A DNA stretch of 63,088 bases, the filler included, from Thelocarpon superellum (lineage: Eukaryota): assembly GCA_026025795.1 (NCBI GenBank). It is 4 parts of 4 records of this genome, joined end to end, with 100 filler letters (N's around TTAATTAATTAA, not from the genome) between each part and the next. Parts side by side here need not be neighbours in the genome. Positions count along the whole stretch, not along the records: positions 15,810 to 31,517 come from JAPEUG010000405.1; 3 more parts are not named here. One strand, given 5' to 3'. Position numbers and translations under genes: made by a program. Under the pieces are notes generated by a model. The model ran no database searches. It was not told where the DNA came from and saw only the letters and a program-made list of their open reading frames with translations. Positions 15,710-51,617 of the stretch are shown here, in pieces (the first letter of the stretch is position 1; the number at the start of each line of letters is the position of its first letter).

Positions 15710-15809
15710 NNNNNNNNNNNNNNNNNNNNNNNNNNNNNNNNNNNNNNNNNNNNTTAATTAATTAANNNNNNNNNNNNNNNNNNNNNNNNNNNNNNNNNNN
15801 NNNNNNNNN
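15710..15809. other. Artificial contig linker (N44-TTAATTAATTAA-N44)
   Basis: Six-frame stop linker inside N runs; identical 100-nt structure at three places. Confidence 0.98.
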
Positions 15810-17110
15810 ACCGTCGACAGTACCGGCCTCACGATCGGATTCGGGTACTGCATCAGCCCTGGATTGTTCGACTCCACTTGCCGCGGATGCGTCAGCTGCA
15901 CAGGTCTCGGATTCGGATTCGGATACGGATACGGATTCGGATTTGTGTGCGGGTTCCGATACGCCATTTGCCCTTGAGGCATCGAAAGCACTGGACCCTG
16001 GGGGGTGTACTGCATCTGCTGCGGATGTGGGTACTGCATCTGCTGCGGATGTGGGTACTGCATCTGCTGCGGATGTGGGTACTGCATCTGCTGCGGATGT
16101 GGGTACTGCATCTGCTGCGGATGTGGGTACTGCATCCCCTGCTGGCCGGTGTACTGCAATCCCGCCTGGTCGGTGTACTTCCCCGGGCCAGTGAACTGCA
16201 TCCCTTGCTGGCCTGTGTACGGCGTCTGCCACTCGTTGGGGGACTGCCCCGGCAGCTGGACTGTTGCATGCGCAGCCCACATTGGGTTTGTGCGCTGGTT
16301 CAGCCCTTGGCTCGTGGGCTGTCCCCGCCCCGGATTGATCATCGAGACATCCCCGGGATTCGTCGGCTGCATCTGGCTCGAGTACGGGTTGGTATACCGT
16401 GTCGGTCGTTGGTTCATGGGCTGGACTCGGCCTGGTACCACCGACTGCACTTGCCCGAGGTTGTGGCTCGAGTACTGGACTCGCTCTGGATTCATCGACG
16501 GCTGGGGAGCGGCAACGTATTCATGCTCGACCTGCGCCGACGCACCGATGTTCATGCTATGTACGGGCTCTGCACACCATCTCAGCGATCCTCTCGCTGA
16601 GGTGAGATCCAAGGAAGCAGGGCCACGACCCGTCCCCTTGGAGGCAACGAGACGACGGAAGATGGAGGAAAGGAGGAGGGTTGCATGGGGGAAACGGCTT
16701 ACCACGACGAGCGGATGCAGGCACCCAGGTGTCCAGATCGATGATTTCGACAGCTCGAGCCGCCGGGGGATGACTTCATCCCCAAGGTCAGCTGCGCCGT
16801 CTCCCACACGCCGTTTCCCACGTGGAGACGAGGAGGATCGGGGTAAGACTTACCCTGGTCCATGCTGCACGGTCGGAGATGGCTCGACCGTGGACGGCCA
16901 GCGCGAGGCGCGTGGATCGACCTCGATGGAGGTGGGGTGGAGCAGGTTACGGAGATGGGGATCATGCGAGGCTCGGTGGTTGGCATGGTGGGGCCGCCAG
17001 CTCGAGCCTCGGATGAAGGAGGCGGACGGGGATGGACCAGGAGCGGCCTCATCGCGCTGGTGGATACGGGGATCACCCGCGGGGTCGTGCTGCTGGTGCC
17101 CACGCTCCAT
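15810..17110 (-). CDS. Q/P/Y/M-rich low-complexity protein with QQMQYPHP repeats, 3' end cut by contig edge; exons 17110-16854, 16773-16703, 16596-<15810
   Basis: ATG 17110; GTAAGT..GCTGAC..AAG and GTAAGC..CTCAC..CAG introns give one continuous frame into the repeat-bearing ORF. Confidence 0.6.
16007..16136 (-). repeat. 24-bp coding tandem repeat, about 5.4 copies (QQMQYPHP)
   Basis: Unit gtactgcatctgctgcggatgtgg repeated perfectly on the + strand. Confidence 0.95.
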
Positions 17111-30185: not shown

Positions 30186-30590
30186 CTTGGGTCATGTGCA
30201 TGGGAGTATACTGATGATGGATCTATCGGAGTGCTCCCTAACCAGCCGAGCTTGATGTATGTTTGAGCAAGGTCATCTCAAGTTCATCCGCGTGCTCATC
30301 CGTAAAGCTGCTGGCTGCTGCTGCTGGCCGCTGCTGCGTGTCCGCGTGCCTGACCAGAAGAATGCCCGAACGAGCATAGCGGTTTGACGGTGGCTTGCTT
30401 GGGCCGAGGATGACAGCGACAAGCCAGGTTGCTCTCCATTTATCCTGACCGAGTGTATCAATATCTTACATCGATCCTCTACGACACTGAATCCTGTCAC
30501 TAGTCCTATAGAAATCCGCTCCTAAATTTAGAAAAAAACGCAAGTTTGCCATAACCTGAATGTAGTATTCAGATCGCCCAAAAATAATGG

Positions 30591-30734
30591 GGCTCCGCCC
30601 AGGATTCGAACTGTGATCTTCTCTCAATAACGAGCGAGGCGACATGCAGACGATATTTTACTAACCTTGGGACCTCTCGCAGATCTGTTTAGGGTGGGCC
30701 CTAAGCGAGAATCATACCGCTAGACCAACGGAGC
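30591..30734 (-). tRNA. tRNA-Pro-AGG: tRNA-Pro(AGG) with canonical 17-nt intron (30682-30698) and a 55-nt GT-AG insert in the T-arm (30611-30665)
   Basis: Removing both inserts gives 72 nt: GCTCCGT TG GTCTAGCGGTATGA T TCTCGC TTAGGGT GCGAGA GGTC CCAAG TTCGAAT CCTGG GCGGAGC C; T5 terminator at 30580-30584. Confidence 0.85.
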
Positions 30735-31517
30735 TGATGGAAAGATAAAGGCTTAATATAATCTATGAACTATTGCAAGTATCGACTGACTTTTTAGTGA
30801 TGACGGGGAATCTACAAGGGCAGTGGTAATCAGTAGGGAGAGTCGTTGCACGCCGACCAGTGCGAAGACGGGTAAGGGAAACGGGTGTGGTCAATGAAAG
30901 AATGGCAAACGCCGCATTGACCCAAGGCCTAGACCGCCCGCCGGGACATTGACCCTGTGCTTCACGCGTCGATGATTGCAACTGCCAAGTCTAGCAGGCG
31001 AGTCGCAGGCGTGGGAGTGGCGGTGGTTCGATTTTGAAAAGATCCGTCCTCGGGGTACAGGGTGTGCAGATAGCTCAGCACATGCACATCAACGCTGCCT
31101 AAGGCAATGCACTGGGCAGCGTAGTCTCGGTAAGTACTTGTAGCGCTGGTCAGAGGCAAGGTAGGGTCGGACTTCGCGGTGGGAGAGGCGTGGCCGGCAT
31201 GTCTGCAGGGTCATGCACGCCATCAAGACGCAGTCGGCGACGCCCACGACCATTCATCGCACCCTGCGCCTGCACGATGGTCGACGTGGCCACGGCCATT
31301 GGGCCCAGTCGGCGCGACATCAGATAAGCTGGTCCCCATCGAAAGGGCCCCCGCCCGATCAGCAGCGCACTCTGCTCGCTCCGTTCCTTGTGCTCGCTAC
31401 CACCGATCGATGCCGCGGCGGGACAAGCGAGGGAGGCTGCCGCAGAAGCGACGTACCAGCTGCTGGTGTTCCTTGGGTCGGTACGAGTGACTCTGCGGCG
31501 GACGGGCTACTCCTCCT

Positions 31518-31617
31518 NNNNNNNNNNNNNNNNNNNNNNNNNNNNNNNNNNNNNNNNNNNNTTAATTAATTAANNNNNNNNNNNNNNNNNNNNNNNNNNN
31601 NNNNNNNNNNNNNNNNN
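31518..31617. other. Artificial contig linker
   Basis: N44-TTAATTAATTAA-N44. Confidence 0.98.
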
Positions 31618-32114
31618 CTAGGCCTGGGCGCTCCGACGGCTCCGCGTCGATGAGGCGGCGTGCGACGGACTCCGCGTTCTCGCCCTGGCGCAGGCGGTGG
31701 AGAATGTCATCGCCGCCACGCTCCGCGGTCAGCGCCCCAATCACCGTGGCATAGGCGGCGCTTTCCGCGCGGAGATGCTCGATCTCACTCAACATACGCT
31801 CCTTGGCCGTCTTCAAATGCACCTCGTACACGCACGCCGCAGGATCCCGGGTGGCGCATCGTGAGCAGGGCCTTCGGCCATCGCACTATTCGTCGTCGGG
31901 GGTGAACATCGGTCTACGGCACGGGTCGGCGATGGCAGGGCGGGCGCGCGGGACTGACCTTGGTCTTCCGGCGCTTGCATGCGGTGCAGGCGACTGGCGT
32001 TAGGTGAGGTGGTGGTCGTGATCGCTTCCCCCACGGTCGCCCCACACCATCGGCTGCGGTGGGAGGGTCCGGCTCAGCCTCAGATCGGGACGCCGCATCG
32101 GACGGCGTGGCCAT
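31618..32114 (-). CDS. Zn(II)2Cys6 transcription factor, 5' part only (cut by contig edge); intron 31886-31958
   Basis: ACTACKRRKTK|CDGRRPCSRCATRDPAACVY followed by a coiled coil and DILHRLRQGE. Confidence 0.9.
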
Positions 32115-33683
32115 GGGACGGGGAGGCCCGAGGGAGGTTGCGTCGCCGCGCCGTGGATCGTGCGCGATGAGGCCGGGGCCGCCCGATGCTGCTTCGTCCC
32201 TTGGGAAAGGATCCCGTCATCGGCGTGATGGCAATTCGTCAACAAGCACGGAGTTTGAGAATGAGACTCGGAGATTTGCGTGGGATCGCCGTCACCGGGA
32301 AACCGTAGCCGGACCGGGCTAGACCAGGGCCTGACAAAGGCACGTAATCACGGAAGCGATCCCCGCTTAGGCGGGAAACGCTGCAGATCGCAAACCAGGG
32401 TCCAGCATCTTGGCGGCACTCACGCATCCACGTCGGCAGACCGAGGGAGAAAGGAGGACTAAAACGGGCGACCGTTGGTCCGTCATGATCCAACACCTAG
32501 TGGTGGTCCAGAATCAAGAGCCGACTCTGCCCATCTAGGGAATGCCGTGTCACGTTGCACGGTGTCTATCTCGACAGGAAGACAACGTGAAAATCACGAG
32601 GCCGCAGATCCGTCGAAACGAGAGGCAGTCCAGGTTGAAAACGCTAGCGAGCGAGAGACACAAGCATGCCCGTTACTCACGAATCTCCCGCCAGAAGGAA
32701 AACACGTACTACGACGGACACAGACACCACATCCAGGGTATCTACAGTTTCCAAACGCTGTTGTTGTCAGTTTTCTCTTGGCCGAATTGCGGACGCTGTG
32801 GTGGACTCGAGAACCTAGAATCCAACCCGAGGCAGTGGAGTCCAGTTCAACAAGCGGAGGCCGCTGCGAGTCTTTGCATGACTCGAAGAGCAATCATACC
32901 AAGTGCGCGACCGGTCTTTCCGCTTGGGCGGTTGGGTCAGGGGCACGCTCGATAGACTCTCGCCCGCATTTTCTGCACGTCGGAGTGGTGACGAAACATT
33001 CTACTTCGTCGAGCAAGTCGTGACGAGCGCAGTGCGTTGGCGTTGGCGTTGGCGTTGGCGACCCACAACGCGCATTTCAACATGGCGCTCGAAGCATGTT
33101 CACCATGGCTCCATCTGGGTGTTACGTTTCTGAACGAGTCGTCATGACTCAGAGCCAGGCACCCGACAGGCTCCCGACAGGCCAAATGGCATCATCGGCC
33201 TTCCTCTGGGGCTACTCCGGCCGCCGTTAGCGACGTCGGTCTGACACAGTGACCGATGTTCGGCGGAGAATGCCGCTTCATGTGGTCACACGGCTAGTGA
33301 CACGCATCAACAGGCTCGTGTGCGACGGTTCCCCTGCCTACCACTGCGTCGAGGCCATTTAAGCCCAAGTGGCTCAGCGTGGAAACCAATCGGATCAAGT
33401 CTGCAGGGAGTCGGTCGTGATTTGGACCAGAATTGACGACACTTAGAATGGTGATGGCATCGTCATCTTGACCTCATGATGGCGTACTCGACATCAAACG
33501 TAATGATGATGTTTACCCGTAACGCGTTGGAGACGCTGTCAGGAACGTCTATAAGAAGCCTCTCGATTCCACTCCTCTCTCTACACTCCATCCATCATTT
33601 CAACCCACGCTTTATCAAACCCCTGTTCAATTTTCAGTCTTCGAAATCCACACACACCTATAATCACCATACACTCGATCACC

Positions 33684-47324: not shown

Positions 47325-47424
47325 NNNNNNNNNNNNNNNNNNNNNNNNNNNNNNNNNNNNNNNNNNNNTTAATTAATTAANNNNNNNNNNNNNNNNNNNN
47401 NNNNNNNNNNNNNNNNNNNNNNNN
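47325..47424. other. Artificial contig linker
   Basis: N44-TTAATTAATTAA-N44. Confidence 0.98.
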
Positions 47425-49163: not shown

Positions 49164-51617
49164 TTAAAGAAACTCAAACGTGTCCCCTTTATCGCCCTTG
49201 ATCATGGCGCCGGCGCGTTGCTCACCCACGATCCGTTCCAGCTTCAGACCATCCCAGCGCGAGAAAAGACATCGAACTCCGGTATCGGCGGCGGTGATGC
49301 GACCTTCGCCAACGCTGCGCTCCAAATACCCGCCTGTGATTTCGCGATAGAAGATAGGATTGTCTGGCAGCCCGTACATCACCACGCGCGACACGCCTCG
49401 GATCCGGTATCGGCGAAAGTGATGAGCACGCTCCGTGTAGAGTAAGAGCGCGTGACGGCCCGTCAAGAAGTGCGATCGAGCGCGAGCCACGTCTGGCGGT
49501 GCGGTGTATTCCGAAACAACTCCGAAGGAGAGAGACGTCGTCGCGAGATGATTCCGCACGCGGATAAAGTCCAAGCTTGACGGGATGAAGAGCAGAATAC
49601 CAGGGGCACGCGTGGTGCTCGAAGAGGCCGGTGAAGGGCGATGGCGTACCTTCAGGAGAGAGGGTAGGATGGCGGCGCTGAAGTACTTGAAGCGCACATC
49701 AGGCTCGGCGGCCGGAGAAGGACAGTCGAAGCGCGAGAACACTTGCTTCAGCGTGAACGGCTGGAGCAAAGCGGAGCCATCGTACTGGGGGCTGCACTTG
49801 ACTTTCCCGGCCACGTTTTTCATGTGGCTCGAGAAGAGGCTGTTCAGTTCGGGCGTGTGATAGCCGCTGAAGACCAGGGTCTGTCGGAGATATTGAGCGT
49901 GATCGTCCAAATACCATGCTCGTACGCGACTGAAGTCGCAGCCACGGGCCTCCTTGGGCTGCAGGTTGAGATGGTCGAACAGACATTCCACGTGTTCCCA
50001 GTTTTGCATTAGCAGCGCATCAGCTTGGTCAAGGATGACCATCTCTATTGAGCTCAAGAAATCGTGATCTTGTTTCTTTTCACTGTGGTGGGTCAGACGA
50101 ATGTCTCAATCAACAGGAACGAGGATGACGTACTCGTCCATACCCATCGCCATGCGAAGACCCAGCGGACTTGCGATGATGATGTCGGAGTTGTAGAATC
50201 GTGCAAAGTACTTGATCGTTTTGCGGGTAAACTTCAATCCGATTCGGAAGAGGTCGTCGTCATTGCCACTGAATAGATCCCGGAAGTCTTCGGGCTTGTC
50301 TGCACCCAGCGATCCCTCCGTTTCCACGTATGCGTCCTGAAAGCGCTTCTTGTTCTCCTGCTGCTCCGGCTCACATAAGCCCGCGATGGTATCCACGATT
50401 CGGGCACATGAATGCCGCGTTGGTACAACCACTAGCACTTTCGGCCGGGTAAAGCCTTGGTCGCGCAGCTCCACGTCGTCATCACCGTCCCCTCTCATGC
50501 GGCGCCCGTTGTTTTTGATCACTCGATCTCGTGTCCTGCGGGCTATCAGCATAACCACAGCAATCCTCTTCGATGCTCATACTTGAAGATATGATTCAAG
50601 GCATGGAGACAGTAGAGTGTCCTTAACCCATCAGAGTCGTGAATGGTTCGGCCACCGAAGAGGACATCTTGATAGTCAAAAATATAGGGAGCGATGGAGG
50701 CTTCCACATCGTTGAATTTCGATTTCATCTTCTTTACGCTTGCGACGAGCTTTGATTTCAGCTAAGAATGTATGAGATATCCTCATCTTCTTGAACGCGA
50801 GTAGCCGGGGAGCCATACTTGTAAATCTTGGGGACCTTGGATAGCTTTCGTCGCGGACATTTGAGAGCCCGTCCCCCCCGACGGTATGTATGCAATGACT
50901 TTACCGATTGACTTGGCATGGAATTTCTGAACACGCCATTGGTTCTGTGACACGGTTGCAATGGTCTTTGCAAGGACTGCGTCGTCAGGATTGGCAAAAT
51001 GGGTCTCGAAGATATCGAGGCCTATGAAGATCAGTCTCACTCATTCCACGGGACAAAGTGACAACCTACCATCGCTAGCGGTCTTTTCGTCGTCTGCATC
51101 ATCCTCGGAATAGTCGCTGCCTGTCGAAAGCAGGTCCTCGTTGTCCTCTTGGATCTTGTCGACGTTTCTATCGTCACTTTCCGCTGGACCCTGCCCAAGC
51201 TCCACACGATTGACTGCTGCACCGTCTCGAGGCGTTGCATGCTCTCCTCTCTTTCTTTTCCTGCCATGGAGCTCTTTCGGCGTCGATTCTGGTTTCAAAG
51301 AACGCATGAGGAGGCTGAACGCCGGAATGGAGGAATTGGGGACATCCTCGTCGTCGCCAGCGGTTGAGAGGTCTTCATCGACGAAATCCTCAATGCCGGA
51401 GCTAGAAGACACACTTGCTGATGCTTCAAGGTCTCTAGAATCCGTCAAAAACGATCATCTTACAAGGTCGAGCAGTGGGGGATTACTGGACCATAGGCTC
51501 AACTCTTGACGTGGCGAACTGAGTCGCTCGTCCCCCTCGGCCTCGAGACCGGGAGAAAGGTCTCCCACGTCCACGGCCTCGTCCACCAACTGATCGACCG
51601 CCCTTTGCCACGGCCAT
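49164..51617 (-). CDS. UTP25: U3 snoRNA-associated protein Utp25 (DUF1253), multi-exon
   Basis: [80 protein letters not shown]. Confidence 0.93.

Follow-up and report, generated by a model that had tools for sequence, protein, structure and literature searches.

A stretch of 63,088 nucleotides (nt) of DNA from Thelocarpon superellum (GCA_026025795.1), referred to below as the window, carries on its minus strand a gene for a proline transfer RNA, tRNA-Pro(AGG), that is broken twice. The first interruption is a 17-nt intron at position 37/38, the canonical location of introns removed by the tRNA splicing endonuclease (TSEN). The second is a 55-nt insert at position 53/54, within the T arm, which exhibits GT and AG at its ends. 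An initial annotation of the window had described this arrangement and had taken the insert for a spliceosomal-type intron. The two-interruption anatomy is confirmed here, and the insert most likely represents spliceosomal-type intron sequence.

Gene anatomy and restoration by excision

The gene is invisible in its genomic form. Neither ARAGORN, with intron mode off or on, nor Rfam, at the gathering score and at E<=10, reports a tRNA in the 63-kb window. After excision of the 55 nt by script, ARAGORN -i returns a tRNA-Pro(agg) whose cloverleaf is complete and which contains an intron of 17 nt; its exons of 36, 16 and 20 nt add up to 72 nt. This is the product that exact GT..AG removal had been expected to yield. 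The restored cloverleaf has only two flaws, an A52·C62 mismatch in the T stem, to which the initial annotation had already drawn attention, and a T7·G66 wobble. Its acceptor stem is paired throughout, and those conserved positions that were checked by eye are in place.

As a control, the GT..AG segments of 30-160 nt found in the window, 55,661 in number, were cut out one at a time and ARAGORN was rerun. Eight of the nine junction-spanning calls were the tRNA-Pro(AGG) locus itself, and this procedure revealed no other disrupted tRNA in the window. The ninth call (31998-32136) was rejected, being a junk structure with a 5-nt 'intron'.

The coordinates of the gene parts, read on the minus strand, are given in Table 1. 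The 17-nt intron contains CCCTAA, complementary to TTAGGG of the anticodon loop and able to pair with it as had been proposed, and is called as an intron by ARAGORN. Exon 2 and the 55-nt insert both end in AG, so that three excision registers lead to one and the same product; GT..AG borders are obtained in only one of the three. Because the insert ends in AG, the DNA still reads AGTTCGAATCC across the insert end. We take AGTTCGAATCC to be the B-box consensus and TGGTCTAGCGG, also present in the gene, to be the A box; the survival of the B-box letters is thus as the earlier reading had it. The distance between the two boxes is lengthened by 72 nt, which, to judge from work in yeast, may be tolerated. 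A run of five T residues (T5), likely a terminator of RNA polymerase III (Pol III), follows the gene, and the TATA-like TATATTAA upstream is presumably a Pol III element. The longest T run inside the insert is 2, consistent with the claim that it holds no run that would stop Pol III; this shortness is real but uninformative, since 19 mRNA introns of the window reach at most 3.

Table 1. Features of the interrupted tRNA-Pro(AGG) gene and its flanks, in window coordinates
Feature	Position	Strand	Remark
tRNA-Pro(AGG) gene, interrupted twice	30734-30591	minus	144 nt including discriminator C73; sequence reading
Exon 1: acceptor 5' strand, D arm, anticodon stem 5' strand and loop, G1-G37	30734-30699	minus	
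Anticodon AGG	30702-30700	minus	inside exon 1
17-nt tRNA intron at 37/38, expected TSEN substrate	30698-30682	minus	ARAGORN intron call
Exon 2: T38, anticodon stem 3' strand, variable loop, T-stem 5' strand CCAAG	30681-30666	minus	
55-nt insert GTTAGT...CACAG between G53 and T54; candidate U2-type intron	30665-30611	minus	
Donor hexamer GTTAGT, with exon letters AAG before it	30665-30660	minus	
Branch-site candidate TATTGAG, branch A at 30624	30629-30623	minus	13 nt before last intron base
Acceptor CAG; its AG doubles as A52 G53 ahead of TTCGAATCC	30613-30611	minus	
Exon 3, beginning TTCGAATCC: T loop TTCGAAT, CCTGG, GCGGAGC, discriminator C	30610-30591	minus	
T5 run, likely Pol III terminator	30584-30580	minus	6 nt past discriminator, after CCATTA
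TATA-like TATATTAA	30760-30753	minus	19-26 nt upstream of G1; AT-rich patch in a window of ~60% GC

Intron-like features of the insert

The insert was compared with a reference set of 19 introns from the window, defined by a donor with G at +5, a CTRAY branch motif, a YAG acceptor and open coding flanks; the set is biased toward G+5, CTRAY and YAG by this selection motif. At least two of the 19, in the eIF2A gene, are also backed by tblastn homology. Their lengths range from 46 to 73 nt with a median of 52 nt (n=19), in agreement with the previous remark that the insert, at 55 nt, is as long as most mRNA introns of this window. The splice signals read as they had been described: a GTTAGT donor, a weak branch-like ATTGAG and a YAG acceptor, here CAG. 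With its exon side the donor reads AAG/GTTAGT and fits the reference donors at all positions but +3. At that position 17 of the 19 reference introns exhibit A or G, two exhibit C, and none has the T of the insert. Elsewhere the reference donors show T+6 in 10/19, A-2 in 10/19 (G-2 in 1/19) and G-1 in 10/19. At -2, -1, +1, +2, +4, +5 and +6 the insert donor carries the letters usual for a 5' splice site.

Such ends are rare. Among all 125,142 segments of 55 nt on both strands of the window, 408 exhibit GT..AG and 182 GT..YAG; GTNNGT..YAG is found in 13 and GTNAGT..YAG in 4, the insert included. Allowing for the three registers, the chance of insert-like ends is about 1 in 10,000. The donor and acceptor of the insert are far more intron-like than chance. 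Since GTNAGT..YAG ends are this rare, a spliceosomal-type reading is favoured, and we consider it probable that the insert is intron sequence of this type and not random DNA.

The branch site is the weaker part of the comparison. In the 19 reference introns CTRAY starts at -12 to -22 (median -15). The 55-nt insert contains no CTRAY, as the caveat of a non-consensus branch site had anticipated. Its best branch candidate is TATTGAG, which fits in distance, TTGAG starting at -17, and departs in sequence. The yeast branch box is UACUAAC; TATTGAG is identical to it at 4/7 positions, two of the three differences would still allow pairing with U2 through G·U, and the final one is a mismatch.

We also selected introns without the branch requirement. 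A filter based on coding flanks only performs no better than control dinucleotides, with 79 GT-AG groups against 82-92 in one comparison and 11 against 15-19 in the other. In the 11 groups so selected, by a filter no better than its controls, CTRAY occurs at -13 to -16 in seven, or in eight if the donor at 50133 takes the nearer acceptor; the remaining three lack other intron features.

The insert differs from introns of the tRNA type in position and in structure. It lies at 53/54 and not at 37/38, which is occupied by the 17-nt intron of the same gene. In a search for the bulge-helix-bulge (BHB) motif, the insert exhibits only 1, 1 and 2 of the 4 central pairs in its three registers, and 0-2 pairs in the flanking helices, whereas the gene's own 37/38 intron, run through the same search, reaches 3/4 central pairs together with an anticodon stem of 6 bp. 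Neither the minimum-energy fold nor the centroid fold places the insert junctions in 3-nt bulges. These observations support the conclusion that the insert is not a tRNA-type intron. The insert is also without a fold of its own: its minimum free energy is -5.6 kcal/mol (z +1.21), and 182 of 200 shuffled sequences are at least as stable. The 63-kb window holds no second copy, the best other match being 11 nt long. No terminal inverted repeat was seen by eye, and the only duplication at the borders is the AG dinucleotide. The above-normal length and stable fold of introner-like elements are both absent from the insert, given its 55 nt and z of +1.21.

Relatives, assembly support and surroundings

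Scanning metagenomes with the 28-nt 5' half of the gene identified 77 tRNA-Pro(AGG) loci, of which 75 are evaluable, two being cut by contig ends. The 28-mer G9-G37 of exon 1 is identical in all 77. The T arm is uninterrupted in 74 of the 77, and all five T-stem positions are paired in 73 of those, the exception being the truncated locus L018. A restorable T-arm insert is found in none of the 75 evaluable metagenome genes. With a count of 0/75, conservation of such an insert across the tRNA-Pro(AGG) family can be dismissed. The A52·C62 mismatch is likewise absent from all 73 intact metagenome genes. The T stem CCAGG/CCTGG occurs in two relatives (L014 and L065), suggesting that A52 may be derived from G52. 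The acceptor stem of the Thelocarpon gene is shared by 0/77 loci, and there is no orthologue among them. A scan of GTDB genomes with the full 5' exon gave 0 hits, as expected for genomes of prokaryotes.

A 37/38 intron of 17-48 nt is present in 42 of the 74 relatives. Introns of 43-48 nt are confined to one fungal contig group (L002, L003, L012, L016, L017, L020, L034, L057 and L066), and the remaining intron-bearing loci have introns of 17-22 nt. Two of the 77 loci, L018 and L036, break off within the T loop or immediately behind it, and the 400 nt that follow contain no 3' half that would match. Both belong to other organisms and are truncated pseudogenes.

In the sequencing run X1, the stretch 30546-30740, insert included, falls on a single contig without branches (depth 100.9) that shows 0 differences from the window. 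The assembly may have been made from X1, so that this contig represents consistency and not independent support. By calculated depth, no other contig at the level of the main genome lies on the conserved 5' half in X1, a result from which nothing is concluded, since contigs are no evidence of absence and some records are filtered out. An allelic bubble in X1 at 30711-30824 has arms of depth 97.8 and 34.7, both of which join the insert-bearing contig. The two alleles differ at 8 letters, all within 30741-30794, a 54-nt stretch shortly before the tRNA; TATATTAA, the tRNA, both interruptions and the outer flanks are identical in the two. With two alleles at 30741-30794, the X1 sample is not one clean haploid genotype there. 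The moss-metagenome runs leave the tRNA uncovered: X4 ends at 30588, and X2 and X3 span 30994-31200 only.

X1 also contains a low-depth contig (~7.6x as calculated, versus ~100-130x for the main genome) that matches 30669-30728 only, that is, T7-C50 including the 37/38 intron. The 30 letters by which it continues read as the rest of a T-stem 5' strand and TTCGA, with GTACGT directly after in place of a T-stem 3' strand. This contig may represent a second tRNA-Pro gene with a T-loop insert starting with GT, or a truncated copy, and probably derives from a minor organism or variant.

The window is composed of four ~15.7-kb pieces joined by spacers of the form N44-TTAATTAATTAA-N44, located at 15710-15809, 31518-31617 and 47325-47424. 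Because of this composite nature, adjacency across the spacers should not be assumed; the tRNA lies 784 nt from the nearest one. Domains of eIF2A, trehalose-phosphate synthase/phosphatase and GT90 in the window indicate a eukaryote. In a search limited to over-long proteins, the best matches of the eIF2A exon are in Pezizomycotina (Dothideomycetes, Lecanoromycetes and Chaetothyriales), with 51-69% identity. By these matches the host would be a GC-rich filamentous ascomycete of the Pezizomycotina, a rough placement.

Around the tRNA, a coding-like open reading frame (ORF) at 30965-31210 on the same strand, which scores 14 bits across its 82 codons, ends 228 nt upstream, and the next coding-like ORF downstream ends at 30191. 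Beyond the spacer, at 31619-32010, also delimited as 31619-31885, on the minus strand, a cysteine motif of the fungal Zn(II)2Cys6 type was recognized by eye, in which ACTACKRRKTK and CDGRRPCSRC are separated by an intron-like GTCAGT…AATAG; because of the spacer it may not be contiguous with the piece carrying the tRNA. At 15996-16144 a GC-rich unit of ~24 nt (GTACTGCATCTGCTGCGGATGTGG), repeated in tandem, gives rise to a spurious weak match to Rfam isrG (E 0.018).

Origin and fate of the insert

We tentatively prefer to regard the locus as a young, crippled tRNA copy that followed an intron gain. A gene of an ordinary nuclear tRNA-Pro(AGG) family with a 37/38 intron would have received a 55-nt sequence of U2-type likeness between G53 and T54, the arrival of the insert being an intron-gain event. 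The Pol III transcript would then mostly be discarded instead of matured, since it would expose a 62-nt T loop without the T-loop/D-loop elbow, together with an off-consensus branch site and a mismatch in the T stem. The crippled state is suggested by the lack of CTRAY, by T at +3 (0/19 reference introns), by A52·C62 (0/73 relatives) and by the occurrence of the insert in 0/75 genes. With respect to exon damage of the kind that marks a pseudogene, A52·C62 is the sole defect, and all 73 intact relatives are free of it.

Several points weigh against a crippled copy. Apart from A52·C62 the exons are flawless, down to the fully paired acceptor stem, and neither the TATA-like element upstream nor the T5 terminator is damaged. 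A dead copy would have to be very young, because age should bring more damage. The single exon defect itself looks like adaptation rather than decay, for A52 supplies the A preferred at donor position -2 (A in 10/19 reference introns, G in 1/19). Such an A would be expected under selection for splicing efficiency, or if the insertion had preferred a site ending in AG. Nor does the weak branch site resemble neutral decay of a CTRAY, because a change at 2 of its 5 bases would imply far more damage in the exons than is seen, and the lack of CTRAY is measured against a biased set, the reference introns having been selected for that motif. Finally, a Pol III transcript of similar size, the U6 RNA of Schizosaccharomyces pombe, is spliced by the spliceosome according to PMC5855946.

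These points bear on the possibility, which we hold somewhat less probable, that the gene encodes a working, doubly spliced tRNA. The spliceosome would remove the 55 nt, and TSEN with a ligase the 17 nt, to give tRNA-Pro(IGG). The 144-nt Pol III precursor would be handled by the spliceosome, then by RNase P and RNase Z, then by TSEN and ligase; the spliceosome would have to act first because the tRNA body cannot fold before. In favour of such a gene are its clean exons, the presence of promoter-like elements and a terminator, a strong donor next to exon AAG, a CAG acceptor, and a length and branch distance typical of the host. The terminal AG of the insert rebuilds the B-box letters, A52 suits the donor preference at -2, and no T run in the insert exceeds 2, though none in the 19 mRNA introns exceeds 3 either. 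Precedents are listed in PMC5855946 for S. pombe U6, for the genes of the small nuclear RNAs (snRNAs) U1, U2 and U5 and for ascomycete ribosomal DNA (rDNA). A spliceable insert should also outlast a lethal one, so that clean cases would be enriched for working ones. Standard finders would miss genes of this kind; in tRNAscan-SE 2.0 the search for non-canonical introns is described as belonging to the archaeal mode only (PMC8450103). Against a doubly spliced tRNA stand the lack of CTRAY and the T at +3, which occurs in 0/19 introns, as well as a product burdened with a mismatch that 0/73 relatives share. A second case is found neither among the 75 metagenome genes nor in GTDB, and literature searches returned no published tRNA case. 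We judge a crippled copy slightly more likely than a tRNA matured by the spliceosome and TSEN. Of the interpretation offered in the initial annotation, the spliceosomal-type character of the insert stands, on the strength of donor, acceptor, length, branch distance and absence of a BHB motif, and its removal by the spliceosome is a conjecture; the alternative named there, that the locus records the entry of an intron into a tRNA gene, accounts for the data no less well than the doubly spliced tRNA does.

Other explanations account for the insert less well. An ordinary pseudogene could result from a random 55-bp insertion, for instance of filler DNA at a repaired break, with coincidental GT and AG ends. 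The 2-nt AG repeat at both borders fits the microhomology of a repair junction, the insert lacks CTRAY and is unique in the 63 kb, and damaged tRNA-Pro genes do exist, as L018 and L036 (2/75 evaluable loci) demonstrate. We regard this origin as unlikely nonetheless, with only 4 of 125,142 segments carrying GTNAGT..YAG ends and with a match that reaches the exon-side AAG, an intron-typical length and the branch distance; moreover, the damaged metagenome genes are truncations and not clean restorable inserts. An insert retained in a mature RNA, either a non-decoding tRNA-like RNA with an expanded T loop or a read-through product of RNA polymerase II (Pol II) from the upstream ORF, is very improbable. 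The coding-like ORF at 30965-31210, which stops 228 nt upstream on the same strand, would provide a source for the latter, but the insert itself is unstructured (z +1.21), and the exact restoration of a cloverleaf favours removal or recent insertion over a new structured RNA. Equally slight is the chance that the 55 nt are an assembly or read artefact absent from the real tRNA gene. The insert is covered by a single data set, X1, which probably served for the assembly, and the window is itself a composite of four spacer-joined pieces. Speaking against an artefact are the unbranched contig of depth ~101 over 30546-30740 with 0 differences, the joining of both bubble arms to it, the 784 nt to the nearest spacer, and the exact restoration of a tRNA upon removal, which would be unexpected of an error. 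Least probable of all is a second endonuclease-cut BHB intron at a non-canonical position, as in Cyanidioschyzon, nucleomorphs and archaea. Archaeal non-canonical tRNA introns do use position 53/54. Eukaryotic algae with ectopic BHB introns of 11-69 bp are also described (PMC3978253). A central helix of 1-2 of 4 pairs with flanks of 0-2 in all three registers, against 3/4 plus 6 for the gene's own 37/38 intron, and folds with no junction in a 3-nt bulge leave this reading already close to refuted.

The initial annotation knew of no spliceosomal intron in a tRNA, and our literature searches likewise retrieved no paper on one in a tRNA gene; most subscription journals lay outside their scope, so that such a report may still exist. 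Should the insert be spliced, it would represent the first case of a spliceosomal intron within a tRNA gene. The tRNA would then constitute a new class of host, made by Pol III, abundant and far from the catalytic centre of the spliceosome. Maturation of a fungal tRNA would depend here on the spliceosome, two unrelated splicing machines serving one molecule. Fungal tRNA gene counts could also be systematically too low, such genes remaining hidden, because ARAGORN and Rfam miss this gene and tRNAscan-SE restricts non-canonical introns to its archaeal mode. If instead the copy is dead, it would offer a rare snapshot of intron-type sequence landing where nothing selects for splice signals. The signals would then have come with the insert rather than being selected later, which bears on the origin of introns.

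Among known systems, the additional tRNA introns of Cyanidioschyzon merolae, nucleomorphs and archaea resemble the insert in lying outside 37/38, in occurring several per gene, in their size of 11-69 bp and in being invisible to standard eukaryotic tRNA finders, as reported in PMC3978253. They differ in requiring a BHB motif cut by the tRNA endonuclease, absent from the insert, and GT..AG ends are not the rule among them. Short (<200 nt) introners of fungi and algae without transposon features, possibly moved by the spliceosome, are described in PMC11146597. Introner-like elements share with the insert the character of newly gained short spliceosomal introns in fungal genomes (PMC11146597, PMC3609843). 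They are longer than regular introns, stably folded and present in many near-identical copies, whereas the insert is of ordinary length, unstructured and unique in the 63 kb.

Closer parallels are provided by noncoding RNA genes. Spliceosomal introns in the genes of snRNAs and ribosomal RNA (rRNA) are the main natural evidence for intron insertion by reverse splicing, and PMC5855946 lists them in U6, U2, U5, U1 and rRNA genes. The introns in U1, U2 and U5 of Rhodotorula hasegawae and in ascomycete rDNA likewise have fungal non-mRNA hosts, some of which (U1, rRNA) lie off the catalytic centre; in contrast to the present gene, those listed are Pol II or Pol I transcripts and none is a tRNA. The U6 introns come nearest. 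They are thought to have arisen by reverse splicing followed by reverse transcription, reverse splicing being the origin proposed for the intron of S. pombe (PMC5855946). U6 is a target for intron insertion because it sits in the catalytic centre of the spliceosome, where a tRNA does not. Splicing has been demonstrated experimentally for S. pombe U6, whereas for the tRNA insert it is a prediction, and the branch site of the insert is off-consensus. In its other traits the insert agrees with the U6 introns of S. pombe and other fungi as presented in PMC5855946, being a candidate short GT-AG intron in a small Pol III noncoding RNA gene with an internal promoter, with exons and intron of similar sizes.

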